The translations under genes were made by a program, and so were the position numbers. A stretch of DNA of 63,910 bases, the filler included, from Globobulimina sp. (lineage: Eukaryota), in NCBI GenBank assembly GCA_003354225.1. It is 58 parts of 58 records of this genome, joined end to end, with 100 filler letters (N's around TTAATTAATTAA, not from the genome) between each part and the next. Parts side by side here need not be neighbours in the genome. Positions count along the whole stretch, not along the records: positions 54,084 to 55,086 come from PIVH01026107.1; 57 more parts are not named here. One strand, 5' to 3'. This document shows, one piece after another, positions 3,430-63,910 of this stretch; positions within the stretch are counted from its first letter, which is position 1, and every line of letters starts with the position of its first letter. The notes beneath the pieces are model-generated. The model ran no database searches. It worked only from the letters and a program-made list of their open reading frames with translations, and had not been told where the DNA came from.

Positions 3430-4316
3430 ATGAGAATTTCTAATTATTTTTGCATTTATTTATTAACTATCTTGCTTTATCCATTGTCGTCATCTCCACC
3501 AAATATAATCATCTTCCTAGTTACGTAGAAAATCTATTTAATTATTTTTGTTTTTGCCGCAAGCATCATATTAATGTTAATTATAGGCAGATGATCTCGG
3601 CTATAATGATTTAGGATCTTTTGGATCTGTTTCAATCAATACACCAAACTTAGATCTTTTAGCTGCAGAAGGAATGAAACTAACTCAGTTTTATTCGACT
3701 GCTCCATTATGCAGTGGTTCAAGAAGTGCATTAATGACCGGAAGGCTTCCTCAACGGACCGGCGTGTACACAAACTATACATATCCAAAAGATTTGCGTT
3801 ATCGTGTATTCACACCATCAACTTCCGGCTCATTACCACAAAAAGAACTGACAATCGCTAATTTCCTAAGAGACAAAGGATATAATTGCAAACTCGTCGG
3901 TATGTTAATAATATTGTTATTGTAATATATGTGTGACTCGTGGCCTCACTCTGTCAAATTTCCAGGAAAATGGCACTTGGGACATCATGAAGCGTTACCC
4001 ACTCAAAGAGGGTTTACATCATTTTATGGGTTACCTTATTCTCACGAAGAAGGCTTCCCGGGACCAGGTATTTGATTTAAATTCATTTTATTATTATGTG
4101 TTACTACATTCTGCATTTAAATTGTTTTCTTTTTACAAAAGACCCCGAAAGATGGGTATATCCGCCAGTGCCATTGTACAGAGATTTTGATATTATTTAC
4201 CAACCATTCAATGGAAGTACATTACAACCATTATATAACAACGAAGCAGTAGAATTCTTACAAAATATGTCCATATCTAGGCAACCATTTTTTTTGTATA
4301 TGTCTTATGAGGTTAT
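3430..4316 (+). CDS. Secreted arylsulfatase-family protein, 5' part; introns 3520-3586, 3900-3965, 4068-4141
   Basis: Signal peptide, PNIIIFLADDLGYNDLG, TPNLD, LCSGSRSALMTGR and GKWHLG after splicing. Confidence 0.92.
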
Positions 4317-5520: not shown

Positions 5521-6524
5521 GCGGGCAGCGCACAATTGAAGGCGGCAACGGATCCCACACAAATATGTGAGGCTAAGTCCGGTGCACAAGGCATGGTTTT
5601 AGGAATGGAGATGGCGAGAAAGAACATCATGGCACATCCCGAGAGAATTATTTTGCAAACTGATTGGAAGAACTATTTTAATAACGTCAGCAGGAGGGTC
5701 ATGTTGGACACATTATACGACAGAGTCCCCGCTATGTACCCACAGGCCTACCAAATGTACCATAAAGCATATAAGGCATATCTGCCGACAGGCCATACTG
5801 TTGACAATGAACAAGGTTTGGGACAGGGAGTGGTAACAAGCAATGCCATTACTGGCGTTGTATCGAAAGCATTTAACGAGAAAGTCATGGAGAAGTGCAG
5901 GCAAATCAAACCGGACTTTGACATTCATGGAACAGCCAGTTTCGTGGACGATAATTGGGTGTTGATGCACATCGAAGACGCCAACGTGTATATCAGTGTA
6001 GTGGAGAAAGTGGGGCCCCTCTTTGGGTTCTACTTAAATGCGTCGAAGAGCATCATTACGTGTGCATGGAGTGCCGATTCTATTAACCATTTATTGTCAG
6101 ACTCTCTGAAGCAATTCAAAATCAAAGAGAATGGCAACACCGAATGTCTCAGTATTCCTATTGGGACAAAGCAGCATGTTATTGACCATATGCGCACAAA
6201 GGTGACGGACATTAAACGATGCATAGGAAAGGTGGCAACCCTCCAAATGGCACAGGCACAGTACAAAATAATGAGAGATTTTATTAACTCATCACGACTC
6301 GTATATTGGTTCAGTTCTGTCCCACCGGACATAACCATTGAAATCGCACGATTTTATGACACCGAATTACGTGAAATTATATCCAGGATGTTTGGATTCA
6401 TTTTGTCGGAGGAGGAGTTCATTCAATGTGGCTTATCGATCAAGAAGACAGGATTTGGATTACGCACTGCAACCAACCAATTAAGCGCGATCTATCTCCC
6501 AGCTCTCCATGCTTCGAAAGACAT
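5521..6524 (+). mobile_element. Non-LTR retrotransposon reverse transcriptase fragment (CRE-like clade)
   Basis: QTDWKNYFNNVSR, GLGQG, FVDD, LNASKS, LSIPIG and LSIKKTGFGL parallel CRE-clade motifs (DxxNAFN, GxxQG, YxDD, LGVPIG, LPxxxGGLG); GC is higher than in host contigs. Confidence 0.8.
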
Positions 6525-6626: not shown

Positions 6627-7076
6627 CAGTCTATTTGCAGAACAACAGGTATGGCTCCAGTCGATGTAAACCATAACAATGCTGAAACATTATGGCAAAA
6701 ACTGTATGGACAACCTATGAAAAGCAGAAAGTTCAACTTCCAAGTGGGAGATAAAGTAAGGATAACTAAGGAGAAACATAAACTTTCCAAAGGATATCTC
6801 CCCAATTTTACTCAGGAAATATTTGTGATCCTTGAAAGATTAAATAGATCACCTCCTGTGTACAAGTTAAAAGATCTTAGTGATGAGGATATCGAAGGTG
6901 TATTCTATGAGGCAGAGTTAGTCCGCATAGTGGAAAATGGAAAACAAGCAAGGGAAATCGACAAAGTTTTAAAAACAGAAAACCAAGATGGAAATTTGCG
7001 ATACTTTGTAAAGTTTAAAAATGAACCTGTCAAAAATAATAAATGGGTGTTAGAGTCAGAACTTGTAACTATATAA
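6627..7076 (+). mobile_element. Polinton/Maverick integrase C-terminus with chromodomain-like end
   Basis: GMAPVDV, FQVGDKVRI, KGYLPNFTQEIF, YKLKDL..IEGVFYEAEL and YFVKF..NKWV are typical of Polinton integrases. Confidence 0.88.
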
Positions 7077-8346: not shown

Positions 8347-8858
8347 CACGCTCTTATTCCTGTTAAACTAAATTAAAGTAAGTTTTTGGAAGAGTGTTGA
8401 CACTTTCTCAGGGGTTTTAAAATTGTGGGTTGAACATTTGAGTAACATATTGTTGCTGACCCACAGAATGAAAATCTCTTAGAAAGTGTCCACACTCTTG
8501 GTGATAAAAACGTAAAAATTCTGACGCTGAAAACCGGAGTAAAGCAATTAATTTAAGAACAGCCTTTGGCACATTGAAGACATAAATTATCACAGCAATG
8601 ATGAGGGCTGCACACTTTCCAATTTGCTTTATTTCTACACTTACATATAAAATCGTAATACATATCACCAAATTTATATAATAATAAAATACAAAATGAA
8701 TCTATGATACTATCCAAACTCATTATATTTGCNNNNNNNNNNNNNNNNNNNNNNNNNNNNNNNNNNNNNNNNNNNNTTAATTAATTAANNNNNNNNNNNN
8801 NNNNNNNNNNNNNNNNNNNNNNNNNNNNNNNNTAAGCTCACTAAGCTGGCATCTTATT

Positions 8859-9836
8859 TTGAAAATGAAACCTCTTAACAACTTAATAGGCAATAAATTG
8901 ATTAAAAATCTTTATAATTTGAACAAAAATGATGTATTGAGAAGGGATGTTGTTGATAAAGGATATGAAATTTATTTACAAATAAAAGAGCCGAATGCAT
9001 TTTGTGTAAATAGTTTCCTGAAATTATGTGAAGATTTTAAATATCCACAAAAAGCATTATCGATTTGGAAAGATATTGAAATGTTAATAAATCATGAAAA
9101 CAATAATAAACTGTCATATACGCTGTTAATCAATGTTTATGGACAATGTTCTGTTGAATCAGCACAAAAAATATTTGATTTTATTCATAGCAAAAACGAT
9201 AAAAAAACTGATATTGCCACGATCGGAGCTATGATGAATGTGTATATAAAAAATAAGTGTAATGATAAAGCTTTAGAACTGTATCAAACAATGGAGCCGG
9301 ACTCATTAAACAATGTTTGTCATTTACTCGCAATAAAAGCGAGCGGGAAATCATTAAATCTTGAAAAAGGAAAACAAATTCATCGAAATATTAAAAATAA
9401 TGCAAATATACACATATTAAATTCATTGATTCATTTTTATGGCATTTGCATGGATATAAACAATGCATTATTTGTATTTGAATCAATTAAAAAGAAAGAT
9501 ATTGTAACTTATAATACCATGATCAATGCATTTATGAATAATAATGACAGTGAATCAGCATTGAAATTGTATGATAAAATTGATCATATTAATACTAATA
9601 ATATACGAAGAGATAATCGGTGCCATTTATTAGCGCTTAAAGCATGTATTACAACAAATAATTATGAAAAAGGTAAACGTATTATAATTGATACAAAACA
9701 AAATAGTGATATACAAAACAAAACTGCATTTATTGATTTTTATGGACATTTTGGAGATATATTTAGCGCCGCGGACATTTTTAATTCAATTTCACAGAAA
9801 CACAGAAACATTGTTTGTAATAATTCAATGTTAACA
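8859..9836 (+). CDS. Pentatricopeptide-repeat protein (PLS-like array), partial
   Basis: ILNSLIHFYGICMDINNALFVFESIKKKDIVTYNTMINAF..ALKLYDKI..HLLALKAC..GKRI shows alternating S/P/L-type motifs. Confidence 0.88.
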
Positions 9837-12144: not shown

Positions 12145-13148
12145 ATTTCAAATTAACGGACAGTTATATGACGGATTTACGAGCATGTCATGTAAACGTT
12201 CAATGGATGATTTCTGTGGTGAGTTTTATTTTACTGCAATTTCAGAAACTCAGGTTTTTGAAAATTATCCAATCAAAGAAGGACAAGCATGTAATGTAAT
12301 AGTCGATGGTGAACGATGGATGACTGCGTCAATTGAAACACTAAGTGTTGATTACGATGAAACAGAAATAACAATCAATGCAACAGGTCGAGAAATAACA
12401 GCCGATATTATTGATTCAACCGTGGGACCTGCTATCAGTATAGTTGGTCCCATCAGTCTTGAAGACTTAATAAACGAAGTATTGTCTTTAAGTAGCATAA
12501 CGGATATACAAGTTGTAAACGATGCGCCGAACATAGAACCGTTTGCTGAATCTGAAATAATAAAGCCATCTCTAGGAATGTCTATACATGACTTCTTAGA
12601 GAGTTACGCTAGGACTAGACAGGTATTATTAGTGACTGATAATTTTGGTCGCCTTGTGTTTACTAGGAGCTCTGAGGTATTATCTAATACTCGACTACTT
12701 AATAAAGTCGACGGACAAAGAAACAACGTCACTGGTGCTAGTTCAAAATTCGATAGGACAAAACGTTATGGCAAGTATGTAGTTCATTCGCAATCTAACG
12801 GCGGTGATGTGAACTGGTATCAATCTGAATTCGACCCAAATGCATCAGACGAAGATAACGCTGCAGTAGTTGCCGCCAACACAAATATATTTGCCGAAGT
12901 AATAGACCCTGAAATACGACCAACCAGAATAAACCACATAATATCAGAAAATCCAATGACAGTTGAACAATGCCAAGAACGTGCGGCATGGGAATGTAAT
13001 ATAAGTAGGGCACGTTCAATTGACTATAAGTGTATGCTCGATGGGCATAGTTTCAATGGAGTTGCTTTGAATTCAAATATACTCCACTTTATCGATGACG
13101 ACTTTATGGGCATAAGTGCTGAAATGATTTTAAGCGCCGTCGAACTTG
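12145..13148 (+). CDS. Phage Mu gp44/GpP-like baseplate hub protein fragment
   Basis: INGQLYDGFTSMSCKRSMDDFCGEF, VIVDGE..MT, ATGREITADIIDST, LVTDNFGRLVF and ERAAWECNISRARS. Confidence 0.82.
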
Positions 13149-15703: not shown

Positions 15704-16435
15704 TCATCTTTGTAAATCCAATATTAAATAAAAAATAGATTTGCCATTAGCTAGTTGCTCATTATATTTCTGTTCACTGTAATTATAATATTTTCGCACT
15801 TTCTTTATTTGAGAAATGGTGTAAATGCATAATATCCAGATACAAAGTACGCACAATGCCAGCACCCAGATTGGAAACAAAGTGTCTCCCTCGACTTGCA
15901 TACATTGTGTGCCTTTGAATAATTTCGGGATAATCCCATCCGGCCCACATATTTTGGGGAAATTTTGATTCAATATCCATTGGGATACTTTTCCTATTTC
16001 CAATACTAACACACATGAAGCAATCACAAATACATCCAATGCATTCCACGACATACTTATTTGCATCATATTGCTGCAATAGTTCAGATATTTATATTCC
16101 ATCGGAATGAACAGCAACATAATGACCGTCACCGTTAATAAAATGGGGAAAAATATAGCAGTCATAAAAAACGCAAATGATAAAAATGGAGCAGCAAAGT
16201 GTTTATCTGTACAGCCTGGCACTGTAGTTACAATTTGCCATATTGAATATTCACGAACTGGGTCGGATACAAAGTTGCCGACAATCCCTGAAAGTGTATA
16301 CCTCACCGCGACTGCATCAAAAACGGAGTAAATCACCACACAAAAGGCGCCCACAGTAAGCACCAACATTAATACACCATACACTGACGATTTGTTACTA
16401 AATCCAACATGCCAGGCATTATTTTGTTCGTCCAT
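15704..16435 (-). CDS. PqiA-like (paraquat-inducible protein A) membrane protein, C-terminal part
   Basis: YSIWQIV and SWNALDVFVIA (cf. KWSMLDVF); several TM segments. Confidence 0.65.
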   Translation of the reverse strand: MDEQNNAWHVGFSNKSSVYGVLMLVLTVGAFCVVIYSVFDAVAVRYTLSGIVGNFVSDPVREYSIWQIVTTVPGCTDKHFAAPFLSFAFFMTAIFFPILLTVTVIMLLFIPMEYKYLNYCSNMMQISMSWNALDVFVIASCVLVLEIGKVSQWILNQNFPKICGPDGIIPKLFKGTQCMQVEGDTLFPIWVLALCVLCIWILCIYTISQIKKVRKYYNYSEQKYNEQLANGKSIFYLILDLQR

Positions 16436-16560
16436 TGATTTGTCACTAATCTCTATTAAGNNNNNNNNNNNNNNNNNNNNNNNNNNNNNNNNNNNNNNNN
16501 NNNNTTAATTAATTAANNNNNNNNNNNNNNNNNNNNNNNNNNNNNNNNNNNNNNNNNNNN

Positions 16561-24870: not shown

Positions 24871-24939
24871 CGCAGATTGGAGCATTTGGGAAATAAATGT
24901 TTCTGAAATTTATGTTTTTGTGGATTATGCAGACGCTTT

Positions 24940-25292
24940 TACTGAATCAAATAGATGATGAAATCAACGCAGCGTTCTCCGATCTAAATGTTGAAATTAC
25001 AGGCCCTATGGTGATGTATAACGTGCAGGACCGTTATATCAATGAAGGCATGTTTAACTCCTTCAGCATTGCGTTGGTATTAATTGGTTTGAGTTTCTTT
25101 GTGCTATTCCGTTCGGTTAAATATGGCTTGATTGCACTTGTTCCCAGTGTTGTTCCTATCTTAATGGCGGGTGGCGTGGTGACCCTGATGGGCATTTCGT
25201 TAGACCTTGGCACTATGATAGTGGGTGCAATGACGATGGGTATTGCCGTCGATGATGCGATTCATGTGGTCAGTCGCTATTTACTGGCTCGC
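24940..25292 (+). CDS. Bacterial MMPL/RND-family transporter fragment (chimeric contig)
   Basis: VEITG..FRSVKYGLIALVPSVVP..LDLGTMIVGAMTMGIAVDDAIH; abrupt rise in GC. Confidence 0.88.
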
Positions 25293-26496: not shown

Positions 26497-27500
26497 ATAA
26501 TGAAAAACGCTCACGATTTGGTCCATAACGGTAGCGGCAAAATGTATACTTTAATTTTGAATGATTACTGGTGGCCCAAAATGAAAACCGAGATTGGTAA
26601 TTACTGCAAAACCTGTATAGGATGTCAAGCAGTAAAAGGTATACAACACAAACAAAACCGAGGAACACTTAACTTATTCCCAGCAACGCGGCCTTTTGAA
26701 CAGCTTAGCGTTGATATTGTCGGTCCACTGCCTAAAACCGACGATGACTTCCAATATTTAGTGACCATAATTGACAAATTCTCACGGTATTGTATGATAA
26801 TACCAGTAAAGGATACTTTGACTCCAACCATAATACGAGCCATAGAGCGGTGGTATACTACGTTCGGTCCACCAGAGTCCATTCTATCTGACAATGGATC
26901 GCAATTTCTGTCAAAAATATATCAACATTTTCAAAATTCAAACAAAAATATATCAATATATCAACATTTTCAACTGCCTATCACCCGGAGTGCAACGGGC
27001 AAATCGAACGACTGCATCGATGGATAAAAGAGCGTCTGGCACTGCTTGCGCATGACTTAGGTTTGGAATTTGCGATTGATAAAGCTTACCAATGTGATAA
27101 TTGGTCGCATTACATTCCATTAATACAATATTGCTATAATACCATGGTAAATAGAATGACATTATATACGCCGTTTGATATCGTTTTCGGCACAAATCCT
27201 CGAAATATGGATATATTGAGATGCGACCCAAAATGCCCTGATATATATAGAAAATATATGGCAGTACGAATAAAATTAATACATAATAAAGCACGAGAAC
27301 GACAGCAAAGTTATGATAAAATACGAAAGAAATATTATGATAAAAATCGACATAAAATAAAGATTGAACTGAATGATTTATTAATGTACGACATATCACA
27401 AAGTATGACCAAGAATGAAAAGTCATTGATCCCAAACTACGTTGGTCCATACAAAGTGATCCAAACCATGAATAATAATAAGACTCTAAAGATCCAAGAT
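26497..27500 (+). mobile_element. Ty3/Gypsy integrase fragment (HHCC zinc finger, DDE core, GPY) with frameshift at about 26955
   Basis: AHDLVH..YWWPKM..CIGCQ, LSVDIVGPLP, ILSDNGSQF, STAYHPECNGQIER, TPFDIVFG and VGPYKV. Confidence 0.92.
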
Positions 27501-30047: not shown

Positions 30048-30812
30048 TCAAACATTAATAATTTCAGCTTCATCCTCCTCATTAACAATATCAAATTTCA
30101 AGCCATCTGCATCAAAGTCGTAATCAACATGAACCACTGCATTATCCTCAATCTTACCATCCAAAATATTAAACGACAGCGGTTTCAACAATAGATTTTG
30201 AATGCACCTCTTTAACGGCCTGGCGCCGTATTGCTTACTGAACCCAATTTGCGACAAATAGTCTTTTGCTGCTTCGCTCACCGTCAAATTTATATTCCCT
30301 CCGTCCTGATTCACCAACTCCTGCAAATTATCGATCTGTATGTCACAAATCGGCCTCATATCGCTCATCCGCAACTTATTAAACACGATAATATCATCGA
30401 TTCTATTCACAAATTCCGGCGCAAAGTGTCTCTTCACTGCATCCAAATGCATATTCCGTATCTCTCTCTCCTTCTCCTCATCCAATCCGTCCTCAACATC
30501 CAAATCGCTCTTTGCCTCCATATGCATACCAAAGTTATACATCGCGCCCAAGTTACTCGTCATGATCACAATGGTGTTCCTAAAGTCCACTCTCCGGCCA
30601 TGCGCATCCGTTAAAAAGCCCTCATCCATCACTTGCAGCAATATGTTGGTAACCTCTTTCGAAGCCTTTTCAATCTCATCCAATAAGATGCATTGATACG
30701 GTCTGCGACGGATACTCTCCGTCAAAGCACCACCTTCGTCATAGCCAATATAACCCGGCGGCGCCCCAATTAAACGCGACACTGAATGCCTCTCCATATA
30801 CTCGCTCATATC
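30048..30812 (-). CDS. clpB: ClpB/Hsp100 (Hsp78/Hsp104-like) C-terminal AAA+ domain
   Basis: MSEYMERHSVSRLIGAPPGYIGYDEGG, LLDEIEKA, IVIMTSNLG, PEFVNRID and YGARPLKR. Confidence 0.95.
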   Translation of the reverse strand, partial: DMSEYMERHSVSRLIGAPPGYIGYDEGGALTESIRRRPYQCILLDEIEKASKEVTNILLQVMDEGFLTDAHGRRVDFRNTIVIMTSNLGAMYNFGMHMEAKSDLDVEDGLDEEKEREIRNMHLDAVKRHFAPEFVNRIDDIIVFNKLRMSDMRPICDIQIDNLQELVNQDGGNINLTVSEAAKDYLSQIGFSKQYGARPLKRCIQNLLLKPLSFNILDGKIEDNAVVHVDYDFDADGLKFDIVNEEDEAEIINV

Positions 30813-34250: not shown

Positions 34251-34907
34251 TTATGTTTTGAGCCAGTTTTGTGGAGCATATTGAGACTGTGCATTATAAT
34301 GATATCCAAGTAGCAATTCGCTATATTGCGGCGGGTCACCATCTCCAGTCAATGCAGTATTATCAATCCTGAATGATGGACCAAGCCACATTACTCTGCC
34401 ATAATGATCTTCCACTGAATGATTAGTCAATGGGTGCAATAAAATTGTTAATTCGCCTCTATTCATCATAAACCAACTTATAACTTCATGGAAATATTGT
34501 GCTGGCGTCCATACTTCATATGAGCCGCATGGATGAGGTCCAAATGGTGCCATATTGAACAATGGTACAGCGGATGCATTTAAATCCGGTAAAATAGTCT
34601 CATTTATTCCCGGCAGCACAACCAGGAATTCATGATTTGTTACCTTTCCAACTAATTGCTGTTGTATATATTGCGCTGCATTGACGGAAAGATTGTTATC
34701 CTGAAAAAAATAAACATGAAAATGATATTCTTCGATTTCCGCTGTTGAGGTATAAATAATCTCGGTTTGGTTGATTTTGTGTTTAAACGCATGCGTTGAT
34801 TGATGACACTCTCCTCCTTGACAGGCATATGCGGGCCATGGATAATCACCGCATCCAATGCACATATAAACAGATAACACGATAAGGAGTGGAAATTGTG
34901 TTGACAT
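34251..34907 (-). CDS. DOPA 4,5-dioxygenase-family protein with signal peptide
   Basis: YHFHVYF, PFGPHPCGSYEV, WFMMNRGELTILLHPLT..EDH..MWLG; hydrophobic N-terminal leader. Confidence 0.88.
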   Translation of the reverse strand: MSTQFPLLIVLSVYMCIGCGDYPWPAYACQGGECHQSTHAFKHKINQTEIIYTSTAEIEEYHFHVYFFQDNNLSVNAAQYIQQQLVGKVTNHEFLVVLPGINETILPDLNASAVPLFNMAPFGPHPCGSYEVWTPAQYFHEVISWFMMNRGELTILLHPLTNHSVEDHYGRVMWLGPSFRIDNTALTGDGDPPQYSELLLGYHYNAQSQYAPQNWLKT

Positions 34908-35328
34908 TATTCCTGTTATCTGTGTGACTGTGTCGCTCCTAATATTACAAACTTGCGAAAAATCGAAAAGAAAAAAAGTGTTTTAGTGAAGCTACGGAGT
35001 TTTTGCGCAGCCTACATTTTCAATCGTATATATACAAAATATTGAGAAACAACACAAATACAAAATATTGAGTGGTACAGTGAACAAATCGTAATTTAAA
35101 ATAACAGACACGTTATTTCAATCACATTATTTGCTAATTTGCATCACAACAAACAAAATTCTTTAAAAAATAACAATGCAATATTTATGAAACCAAAAAA
35201 TAATAATCATAATATTTAAGATGATTTTNNNNNNNNNNNNNNNNNNNNNNNNNNNNNNNNNNNNNNNNNNNNTTAATTAATTAANNNNNNNNNNNNNNNN
35301 NNNNNNNNNNNNNNNNNNNNNNNNNNNN

Positions 35329-52313: not shown

Positions 52314-52485
52314 TTTCTAGCGTTTTGTTTTATGGTTTTGTGCTTGCAAAGATAAAAAACAACACATTTTAGAACGAAAAGTGTATGAAATTATTTCAAA
52401 ACTGAGAATCAATAATTCAGCTCAAATAAATAAAATTACATTAAGTCATCTATAAATTAGATACATTAGCGCAAATTTATAAACT

Positions 52486-52880
52486 ATGTTTGAATCTCAT
52501 TATGGTGAACTAGTCGCCTTAGCTACAGCAATGTTCTGGACAATTACAGCTCTTGCATTTGAAGGTGCTACTACCAGGGTTGGAACCTACTCTGTTAATA
52601 TTATAAGGCTTGTATTTGGTTTTACTTTTTTAACAGCCATGGCCTGGTTTAACCGTGGAATACTATTCCCTACTGATGCAACCCAACATGCTTGGTTTTG
52701 GCTTGGTTTATCGGGTATTATTGGTTTTGTAATAGGCGATTTATTTCTGTTTGCCTCATACCCTATTATAAGCTCAAGAATAGCTATGCTGGTTATGACA
52801 CTTGCTCCACCTTTTGCTGCAATTCTTAGCTTCGTAATCCTTGATGAAAAAATGAGTGACTTAAGTATAGTGGGGATGCT
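52486..52880 (+). CDS. Bacterial DMT/EamA-family transporter, N-terminal half
   Basis: GELVALATAMFW, VNIIRL, LSGIIGFVIGDLFLF and LAPPFAAILSFVILDE. Confidence 0.9.
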
Positions 52881-54083: not shown

Positions 54084-54296
54084 ACTATAAAAAACAGGGT
54101 ACAAAAACGTAATCGCGAACAAGAAAAAAATATGGACTCAACTTATATTGCCGAATTAATCGATAAATATAACGAATTTGCTGAAGATAGAAATTGTTTT
54201 TTCCAAAATGTAGTGCATATAGAAGCCAACCAAAATGTAAATTCTGTTTTTACACAACTTTGTTACTCTATAGATAATATAATATCCGAATTATAA
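54084..54296 (+). CDS. Deoxynucleoside/thymidylate kinase C-terminal fragment (not in the ORF track)
   Basis: TIKNRVQKRNREQEKNMDSTYIAELIDKYNEF..VVHIEAN resembles the dNK lid motif RIxxRGRxxE..YLxxL..Y. Confidence 0.7.
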   Translation, partial: TIKNRVQKRNREQEKNMDSTYIAELIDKYNEFAEDRNCFFQNVVHIEANQNVNSVFTQLCYSIDNIISEL

Positions 54297-54764
54297 AATA
54301 TTTCGATATATCAAAAATATCATTATAAGAGCAATCGCTCGAAAATGAATCCAACGGCAATTCCGTTTTGTTTTTCTCACAAATGTTTGAAAACCACCCC
54401 ATCCGCCATTGCTAGCAAACCAAACTCCTGTTTCATTGACAATGCTTTTTGAGAATTGCTCTTCTAATTCAGTAAGATATTTTGGGTTATCTTTGTTTAA
54501 CTTTGCCATCTTTGCGCAAAACGCAAAATTTGAAACTAGACGGCCATAGTTGATAGTTTTGTCCTTGAAAACAGCATTTATTGCTTCTGGAATCAATTGC
54601 AAAGGCAATTTTTTGGCGTAAGTTTCCAATATGGGGTCCTCTATTTCCACTATTGCGGCAGTCAGTGTTGGTAGGATATAATGTTGATTATAAATTGGTT
54701 GGTCGGTTGCCCAGAGAATAGTTTGTCTAACAAGGCGTCTAATTTGATACACAGTCTCCTCCAT
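54291..54764 (-). CDS. Intronless Bcl-2-family protein (probable viral Bcl-2); alternative start at 54839
   Basis: BH1 VFKDKTINYGRLVSNFAF, BH2 WFASNGGWGGF, C-terminal hydrophobic anchor. Confidence 0.85.
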   Translation of the reverse strand: MEETVYQIRRLVRQTILWATDQPIYNQHYILPTLTAAIVEIEDPILETYAKKLPLQLIPEAINAVFKDKTINYGRLVSNFAFCAKMAKLNKDNPKYLTELEEQFSKSIVNETGVWFASNGGWGGFQTFVRKTKRNCRWIHFRAIALIMIFLIYRNIL

Positions 54765-54883
54765 ATCAACACCATAGGAAATAACAATGCGTCTGACAAG
54801 AGAAAAGTAAAATTGAGAGGATTTCGTCTTTCTTCTCATCCTTTACTATATTTTACCAATTTGTCTTAGTCATTCTGGTTGTC

Positions 54884-55086
54884 ATGGATGAGTCTCGTCG
54901 TGTCAATCTTAAAACTACTTTTTTTAATCCCTGCAACATACCTAAGTATGATTATGGTCAATGTTTGGAAAATGATAAAATCATGAAAACGGCTTTCATG
55001 GTATTTTACATGGACGAGCTGCGTCATACTCTCAAACATCACATAAGCGAATTCTGCAAAGGTTGCAAGCAAGATATAGGTGGAAA
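54884..55086 (+). CDS. Small Cys-containing ORF, 3'-truncated, virus-like
   Basis: Divergent from the Bcl-2 gene; ends in FCKGCKQD. Confidence 0.4.
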
Positions 55087-63051: not shown

Positions 63052-63910
63052 TTATATCACATGTTTCCCTAAAACAAACGGTGGGGACGGAGCTGGACTT
63101 TCTACCCTTCCGAATTTTGTACTAGTATAACTATCATCGATTGCAGCATATATGAGTGTTGCAAGGGAATGAGAAATATCCACATCGAATCCAAATAGTT
63201 GCGTCATCCAAACATAACATAAATCCTCTTTAGGGTCAATCGCAAACACAGTGTTCGCAGCACCGGCCCAACCATATGAACCAACCGATGGAAGGGGAGA
63301 AAAAAATCCACCACTTACAATTTGATTATCAATTTTTAGCCCAAATCCTAACCCAAAACCATCATTTTCACCAAATACAAACCTCAACTTTGAACGTTCA
63401 TTGATCACTGACAATACATTTTTATTTCCAGGCAGACGATTTTTCATCATATATTGAATAGTTTTCCTCGATAACAATCTGACACCGTCTAATTCGCCAT
63501 TATTCAATAACATTTTACAAAATAATAAATAATCCTTTAATGTCGACAATAAGCCGGCGCCACCACTTAAAAATAAAAAATCATCCGAATATTGCACTGT
63601 TTGTTGCAAACCAACCTTATATTCTTTAATTGCTTCATTCATCACAGGTTCATAATATATCGATGCTAAATTGTTTTGATTAATATCTCTCATTTTAAAT
63701 GAAGTACTTTCCATATTTAATGGTTTAAATATATTTTCTTTTAAATATACATCCAAGGACTGACCGGAAAGAACCTCAATCAAACGGCCACAAACATCAA
63801 TGGAATAGGAATATTCATATTTGCTTCCAGGTGCGAACAGTAACGGTAATTTTGCTAAATTATTTACAAAATCCTGCAAGGATCCAGGCGCAAAATATAA
63901 CAGAGAAGAC
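63052..63910 (-). CDS. Beta-lactamase-family serine hydrolase, C-terminal part
   Basis: PLLFAPGSKYEYS, IFKPLNM, SGGAGLLST and YGWAGAANTVFAIDP. Confidence 0.9.
   Translation of the reverse strand, partial: SSLLYFAPGSLQDFVNNLAKLPLLFAPGSKYEYSYSIDVCGRLIEVLSGQSLDVYLKENIFKPLNMESTSFKMRDINQNNLASIYYEPVMNEAIKEYKVGLQQTVQYSDDFLFLSGGAGLLSTLKDYLLFCKMLLNNGELDGVRLLSRKTIQYMMKNRLPGNKNVLSVINERSKLRFVFGENDGFGLGFGLKIDNQIVSGGFFSPLPSVGSYGWAGAANTVFAIDPKEDLCYVWMTQLFGFDVDISHSLATLIYAAIDDSYTSTKFGRVESPAPSPPFVLGKHVI

Follow-up and report, generated by a model that had tools for sequence, protein, structure and literature searches.

A stretch of 63,910 bases from the Globobulimina sp. assembly GCA_003354225.1, called here the window, consists of 58 unlinked pieces of 1003 to 1004 bases each, which are apparently sorted by size and joined by linkers of N runs around TTAATTAATTAA, a six-frame stop linker. 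Positions 54084 to 55086 are one complete contig of 1003 bases (PIVH01026107.1). This contig contains three genes, which alternate in strand: the 3' end of a gene for a deoxynucleoside kinase (dNK)-like protein, a complete and intronless gene of the Bcl-2 family, and the 5' end of a third open reading frame (ORF), ORF3. Because the finding comprises one whole contig, the adjacent pieces in the window are uninformative with respect to linkage or biology. Bcl-2 proteins are regarded as an invention of animals that was copied by viruses of vertebrates. The gene described here is a real, selected and complete Bcl-2 gene, which represents a new divergent subfamily of this known family in a strikingly compact setting.

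The Bcl-2 gene is located on the minus strand between positions 54291 and 54764 and encodes 157 amino acids followed by a TAA stop codon. When the minus-strand ORF is read from its first ATG at position 54839, it comprises 182 amino acids. Since the relatives P0004 (82% identity) and P0005 (64%) align with this ORF only from the residues MEET onward, the shorter version was taken as the gene. An earlier note on this DNA, made from the sequence alone, had described a 157-residue ORF with the Bcl-2 homology (BH) motifs BH1, with a Tyr in place of a Trp, and BH2, and with a hydrophobic tail at its C terminus; re-reading of the sequence agrees with this description, and the relatives now fix the start at MEET. 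BH1, INYGRLVSNFAF at 54519 to 54554, contains a Tyr at the position of the usual Trp of NWGR and retains the Gly and the Arg, and this NYGR aligns with the NWGR of A1. BH2, WFASNGGWGGF at 54390 to 54422, aligns with WIRQNGGW of A1, and the ORF is continuous through GGW. The tail, WIHFRAIALIMIFLIY at 54306 to 54353, consists of about 17 hydrophobic residues with basic flanks; it is nearly identical in P0004 to P0006 and is a putative membrane anchor. At the BH3 position in helix 2, the protein reads LTAAIVEI and does not contain the Gly-Asp pair that is part of the BH3 consensus.

The assignment to the Bcl-2 family was obtained from profiles, sequence matches and structure. The Pfam profile Bcl-2 (PF00452) matched with an E-value of 1.9e-10 and 41.6 bits compared to a cut-off of 31.4, and the NCBIfam profile TIGR00865 (bcl-2) with an E-value of 1.2e-6, which is far under its full-length cut-off. 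All 60 listed sequence matches in the PDB were members of the Bcl-2 family, with A1/Bfl-1 (2.3e-5), fowlpox FPV039, BCL2L10 and Mcl-1 at the top of those listed. An AlphaFold2 model, built on an alignment of 18 sequences, reached a pLDDT of 91.4 and a pTM of 0.87 and shows eight helices, with a helical bundle around a central hydrophobic hairpin as in the Bcl-2 fold; the tail is modelled as a helix at residues 136 to 153. When the model was compared by Foldseek, all top rows were Bcl-2 family proteins with a probability of 1.00 and TM scores between 0.6 and 0.8, albeit at E-values of only about 1e-3. The check by profile and fold proposed in the earlier note thus ended in the Bcl-2 family on both routes, and its call of a Bcl-2 homologue without an intron holds. 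The contig encodes a genuine Bcl-2 homologue, and chance is not at issue. A ratio of nonsynonymous to synonymous substitution (dN/dS) of 0.11 was calculated over 97 codons in comparison to a 70%-identical metagenome sequence (L001), with dS being near saturation, and the gene is therefore under purifying selection.

A phmmer search against 1.8 billion representative proteins resulted in 23 proteins at an E-value of 1e-3 or lower. Eight of these 23 (P0006 to P0013) matched at 1e-10 or lower, and P0015 and P0019 were two weaker fragments. E-values within the family ranged from 1e-40 to 1e-12, compared to only about 1e-5 to 1e-3 for canonical Bcl-2 proteins. The closest relatives exhibited 82%, 64% and 55% identity. 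Family members had 76 to 157 residues, the complete ones about 142 to 157 residues with the same tail, and each of them had been called as a single ORF. They share the pattern LPxLxxAIxEIxDPxL...VFKD..INWGR...FAFCA.MA...GGW.GF. Of the 12 members that cover the BH1 site, 3 have a Tyr there, namely, the contig protein and its two closest relatives, and the other 9 possess the Trp. The subfamily is a distinct, compact and divergent Bcl-2 clade of about ten clusters and not a degraded copy.

Some of the candidates had to be removed from the list of relatives. P0014 and P0026 are long bacterial repeat proteins with GFNAGGWRV...FGDNGVW units, which matched the Bcl-2 query at about 1e-6 to 1e-4 only by repeats of the NFGFNAGGW type and were discarded as false positives; P0025 showed the same pattern of multiple matching stretches. 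Their scores reflect a chance resemblance to the BH2 region that recurs from repeat to repeat and can mislead an automated annotation of Bcl-2 proteins. The first alignment (A1, not the protein of this name) was too divergent for locus scans, so alignment A2 was used instead. Among the loci, L002 is a GC-rich bacterial contig and by our own reading also a false positive. L001, with 5413 bases, is 70% identical to the Bcl-2 ORF over residues 62 to 163, and the likeness sets in abruptly at DPILETY, exactly where a 789-residue ORF starts on the opposite strand. Its guanine-plus-cytosine (GC) content is 38% in the Bcl-2 part compared to 43% to 53% elsewhere. Bacterial-looking ORFs are located at one of its ends, and the 789-residue ORF is of low complexity and eukaryote-like. 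L001 is probably an assembly chimera and, because of this appearance, provides no usable gene context.

On the contig, 884 of the 1003 bases (88%) are coding. The dNK-like gene occupies positions 54084 to 54296 on the plus strand with its last 70 codons and a TAA, and its 5' part lies beyond the contig end. It converges with the Bcl-2 gene, and the two stop codons abut in the hexamer TTATAA at 54291 to 54296, with the Bcl-2 TAA at 54291 to 54293, the stop of the kinase-like ORF at 54294 to 54296 and zero bases in between, as had already been noticed. Neither AATAAA nor ATTAAA occurs downstream of either of these stop codons within the contig. Only weak AT-rich palindromes, 71% to 90% complementary, were found when a hairpin or terminator was considered at this junction, and they were not used. 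On the other side, a divergent spacer of 119 base pairs (bp) at 54765 to 54883 separates the ATG of the Bcl-2 gene from ORF3 and presumably holds both promoters. An octamer, AAAATTGA at 54809, which we take to be the early promoter motif of the Mimivirus type, was dropped as a promoter candidate: with 15 copies in the window compared to 18.1 expected, it is at chance level and not enriched. ORF3 starts at 54884 on the plus strand, contains a CKGC motif and runs off the right end of the contig at 55086 after 67 codons; it is the divergent CxxC ORF previously placed about 120 bp away. The three-gene arrangement is unusually compact and virus-like.

The dNK-like ORF is the weaker of the two family calls. 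Its fragment of 70 residues matched the Pfam profile dNK (PF01712) at an E-value of 1e-5 and 25.8 bits, just below the cut-off of 27, with the C-terminal 66 residues aligning to profile positions 135 to 201 of 203. PHROG 761, thymidylate kinase, matched at 5.2e-5. Nothing significant was obtained by phmmer against the PDB, and a word search among longer proteins found no homologue. The fragment contains an Arg-rich R-x3-R-x-R-x2-E stretch (NRVQKRNREQE), which we assume to be the lid motif of such kinases. This ORF is probably the C terminus of a dNK- or TMPK-type kinase. Of the dNK gene that the earlier note had placed tail to tail with the Bcl-2 gene, the convergent position and a probable dNK-type kinase remain, while the score below the cut-off and the fragmentary state leave the family name less firm. 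ORF3 matched nothing in Pfam, PHROGs or NCBIfam, and the word search among longer proteins gave no homologue for it either.

The other contigs in the window give an impression of the sample. Among their 105 distinct ORFs, Pfam recognized ordinary domains of eukaryotes, an integrase of the Ty3 type, the baseplate protein of a Mu-like phage and several bacterial genes. One contig-wide ORF (12146 to 13147) resembles the Mu-like baseplate protein GpP/gp44 (9.2e-13), and bacterial-type fragments are those of EamA (52483 to 52878) and MMPL (24897 to 25292). The assembly is therefore a eukaryote mixed with bacteria and phage. A sulfatase gene at 3587 to 4200 is apparently split by two short GT..AG introns at about 3901 to 3965 and 4069 to 4141, which are, read by eye, 65 and 73 nucleotides (nt) long and flank an exon of 103 nt. 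The Pfam match of the sulfatase stops at the GT of the putative intron. Searched alone, the second exon of 33 residues had no Pfam match, so that the intron call rests on the GT..AG borders and on KWHLG, which we take to be a sulfatase motif, as read by eye. At least one eukaryote of the sample thus appears to possess short spliceosomal introns, and because of this the main eukaryote may itself be an animal, and in an animal a Bcl-2 gene would be expected. Animal-type items in the window are also MBT/Tudor domains and C2H2 zinc fingers. Other AT-rich contigs, which look eukaryotic, contain families unusual for animals (30051 to 30812, 8835 to 9836, 34254 to 34982, 15707 to 16459 and 63055 to 63909), namely, ClpB/Hsp78-type AAA_2, PPR repeats, DOPA 4,5-dioxygenase, PqiA and a beta-lactamase-like fold. 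Either a protist or an animal with many foreign genes is the main organism of the assembly. Retrotransposon fragments are present at 26497 to 27500, 6627 to 7073 and 5521 to 6522; they include an integrase (rve plus H2C2), whose ORFs overlap and are shifted in frame, and a chromodomain-like C terminus, and in the third one an ORF containing an FVDD motif resembles a reverse transcriptase on visual inspection and had no significant match in Pfam. Scans of the whole window with Rfam and for tRNAs gave no matches and hence no RNA marker of the host.

With the cellular proteins A1/Bfl-1, Mcl-1 and BCL2L10 (NRZ), the contig protein shares the Gly-Arg of BH1, the GGW of BH2 and a C-terminal hydrophobic stretch, here a putative anchor. 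These proteins were the best PDB sequence matches among those listed, at 2.3e-5 to 4e-3, but the identity was only 20% to 24%. In contrast to them, the contig protein lacks a long N-terminal or loop region, has NYGR instead of NWGR and a BH3 without Gly-Asp, and its gene possesses no GGW intron and lies in an array of three genes per kilobase. Viral homologues such as FPV039, canarypox CNP058, A179L of African swine fever virus (ASFV), GIV66 of grouper iridovirus and the vBcl-2 of gammaherpesviruses have in common with it a small, intronless gene in gene-dense DNA and a Bcl-2 fold with a tail anchor, which is putative in the contig protein. FPV039 was the seventh best PDB sequence match (2.4e-4), and the Bcl-2 protein of shearwaterpox had a TMq of 0.81 to the model. 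Nevertheless, no close sequence relation to the viral proteins exists (12% to 21% identity), and no virus gene is located beside the contig ORF. In a study of gene-content networks of nucleocytoplasmic large DNA viruses, as far as its passages on this family go, Bcl-2 belongs to the families tied to vertebrate-infecting viruses (PMC8570155), whereas the sample here looks like a mixture of microbes and micro-eukaryotes. A passage in a survey of marine giant viruses mentions caspase homologues and cites the Bcl-2 protein of ASFV (PMC10148842). An unnamed viral protein of 171 residues in BFVD (A0A3G5ALI0) was found at Foldseek rank 8 with a probability of 1.00 and a TMq of 0.64; accession numbers near it in the match list belong to metagenomic giant viruses. 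It may represent a fold of the Bcl-2 type in a virus that does not infect vertebrates.

A precedent for a Bcl-2 module on a mobile element comes from planarians, in which, according to the relevant passages of PMC6431247, BCL-2 domains reside inside giant Gypsy-like "Burro" retrotransposons, in an AT-rich invertebrate genome. These domains are part of a polyprotein of more than 5,000 residues there, in contrast to the contig gene, which is free-standing with 157 codons, has a start and a stop of its own and a putative tail anchor, and has no retroelement gene beside it on the contig. A literature search of titles and passages found no report of a Polinton, or of a virus infecting invertebrates or protists, that contains Bcl-2 as a gene standing by itself. 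Compared to the dNK family (PF01712, with dCK, dGK, TK2, Dm-dNK and viral dNKs), the neighboring kinase-like ORF agrees in the C-terminal part with its lid-like stretch, but it is a fragment of 70 residues just under the cut-off, with the P-loop, the substrate site and the N-terminal two thirds being off the contig.

Concerning the origin of the gene, we infer tentatively, with a likelihood that comes close to an even chance, that it is carried by a virus or a virus-like element. Its carrier would be a large double-stranded DNA (dsDNA) virus or virus-like mobile element with a gene-dense genome, which would exist freely or in an integrated form and would be associated with the AT-rich eukaryote of the sample. 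This element would have captured a spliced copy of a Bcl-2 gene, which now lies beside a kinase of nucleotide salvage. It is possible, and proposed with more reserve, that the contig and the about ten related clusters stand for a lineage, so far undescribed, of large DNA viruses or of mobile elements resembling viruses. The host of this lineage would not be a vertebrate but a micro-invertebrate or a protist, and the lineage would have its own tail-anchored Bcl-2 regulator next to genes for nucleotide salvage. The coding density, the alternating strands, the abutting stop codons, the divergent spacer of 119 bp and the absence of AATAAA and ATTAAA behind the two stop codons within the contig argue for a virus-like origin. 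So does the Bcl-2 ORF, which runs uninterrupted through GGWGGF into the tail, while the sulfatase gene in the same window appears, by our own reading, to contain introns. Retrogenes would also be without an intron at GGW. Cellular pro-survival and Bak-type Bcl-2 genes from sponges and placozoans to mouse share a conserved exon boundary at this position, immediately behind the GGW of BH2, according to the passages on gene structure in PMC8998228, and this boundary is missing from the contig gene. The synonymous codon choice in the three genes scored 0.052, compared to a mean of 0.157 (standard deviation, 0.053) for 25 eukaryote-like ORFs in the window, and is near the 0.01 to 0.03 of phage and bacterial ORFs in the window.

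Several points weigh against a viral or mobile origin. The deviation in codon choice is only about 2 standard deviations on 282 codons, and three of the reference ORFs were equally low. The contig has a GC content of 34%, the same as most other contigs in the window. No gene for a capsid, polymerase, packaging protein or integrase is present on its 1003 bases, and no hallmark family of eukaryotic viruses was matched by the 105 ORFs of the other contigs. IMG/VR, queried with the three ORFs, an alignment and two distant family members (P0001, A2, P0002, P0003, P0007 and P0008), yielded no relative, in a search that detects fairly close ones only, and none was found in the prokaryote genome collection. 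Compact genomes of eukaryotes, too, contain genes with a single exon and tightly spaced genes. The sequencing run X1 contains 0.43 of the words of the contig and two sister runs next to none; the Logan pieces of the contig in X1 are short (271 nt or less) with a depth of 2 to 12, like a minor genomic component. Parts of the contig were without cover in X1, from which no conclusion was drawn. One 270-nt piece in X1 matches only the last 46 nt of the Bcl-2 gene, with four differences and other sequence on both sides. This piece is a paralogue from a different locus of the sample, and this fits a cellular gene family equally well as repeated elements. The earlier note had gone as far as an invertebrate dsDNA virus or Polinton-like element; of this proposal, the compact three-gene layout stands, and the viral or mobile origin is no more than plausible.

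Alternatively, the gene may be an ordinary one on a chromosome of the small AT-rich eukaryote from which most of the assembly comes, in the simplest case a micro-invertebrate with a compact genome, an explanation that is a serious possibility although it falls below an even chance. The gene would then belong to a lineage-specific family of intronless, retrogene-derived Bcl-2 paralogues and would be near a dNK gene by happenstance. The GC content, the paralogue tail with different flanks in X1, and the lack of a fairly close relative in IMG/VR and of a hallmark gene on the contig or in the window ORFs are all in agreement with this. The motifs of the cellular type are all intact, as is the putative tail anchor, the relatives at 82%, 64% and 55% identity resemble paralogues or sister species, and the window contains the animal-type items described above, including the sulfatase gene with its introns as read by us. 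Bcl-2 families with multiple members are normal in invertebrates, and the rotifer Adineta vaga is listed with three in the part of PMC8998228 that treats this species. On the other hand, the abutting stop codons and the coding share of 88% leave no space for 3' untranslated regions without an antisense overlap, and no poly(A) signal follows either stop codon within the contig. The ancestral intron at GGW, as far as it is documented in the passages cited, is absent, the codon usage is about 2 standard deviations off that of the eukaryote-like ORFs, and a wide gap in E-values separates the subfamily from every canonical Bcl-2 protein among the 1.8 billion representatives. The probability that remains beyond a viral and a cellular origin goes to an artefact or to other sources.

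Whatever its origin, the protein is best explained as a functional, tail-anchored Bcl-2 protein with multiple BH motifs of a new divergent subfamily. Its C-terminal helix is predicted to serve as its anchor in the outer membrane of mitochondria or in the endoplasmic reticulum. The groove around BH1, with NYGR and its retained Arg, and BH2, with GGW, is predicted to bind the BH3 helices of Bax/Bak-type or BH3-only proteins, and such a sequestration of BH3 helices would prevent membrane permeabilization and cell death. We infer pro-survival activity and membrane targeting from the sequence, the former because the best matches are A1/Bfl-1, FPV039, BCL2L10 and Mcl-1 and because the own BH3 position does not contain Gly-Asp. 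A pro-apoptotic, pore-forming effector of the Bax, Bak or Bok type, of either origin, is unlikely. The Z score was slightly higher to BAX than to Mcl-1 or NRZ, but this difference of about 1 was counted as a tie; it comes from the additional tail helix, which is contained only in the BAX crystal structures. The sequence identity is 15% to 16% to BAX compared to 21% to 22% to Mcl-1, and the sequence matches and the BH3 position, judged by the consensus, also disfavor an effector.

Very improbable is an assembly chimera that joined unrelated fragments into an artificially compact layout: the assembly is indeed fragmented and of low depth, the related contig L001 is itself probably chimeric, and the Logan pieces at the dNK/Bcl-2 junction have only 49 to 97 nt, so that none of them includes long flanks. 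However, four short Logan contigs cross 54291 to 54296 and extend for 37 to 38 nt on the dNK side and for up to 56 nt on the Bcl-2 side. One of the four has 0 differences over 54273 to 54339, and a further one of 271 nt covers the start of the Bcl-2 gene, the spacer and the start of ORF3 (54638 to 54908), again with 0 differences. The layout is probably not an assembly artefact.

If the gene is viral or mobile, it would mean that apoptosis mimicry extends beyond vertebrate-infecting viruses to viruses or elements of invertebrates or protists, and structure-function work would gain a minimal Bcl-2 scaffold that is new. If the gene is cellular, it would represent a lineage-specific expansion of the retrogene type, a matter of modest interest with regard to how the apoptosis machinery of small invertebrates evolved. 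With either origin, the NYGR in BH1 is a natural test of the importance of the conserved Trp.
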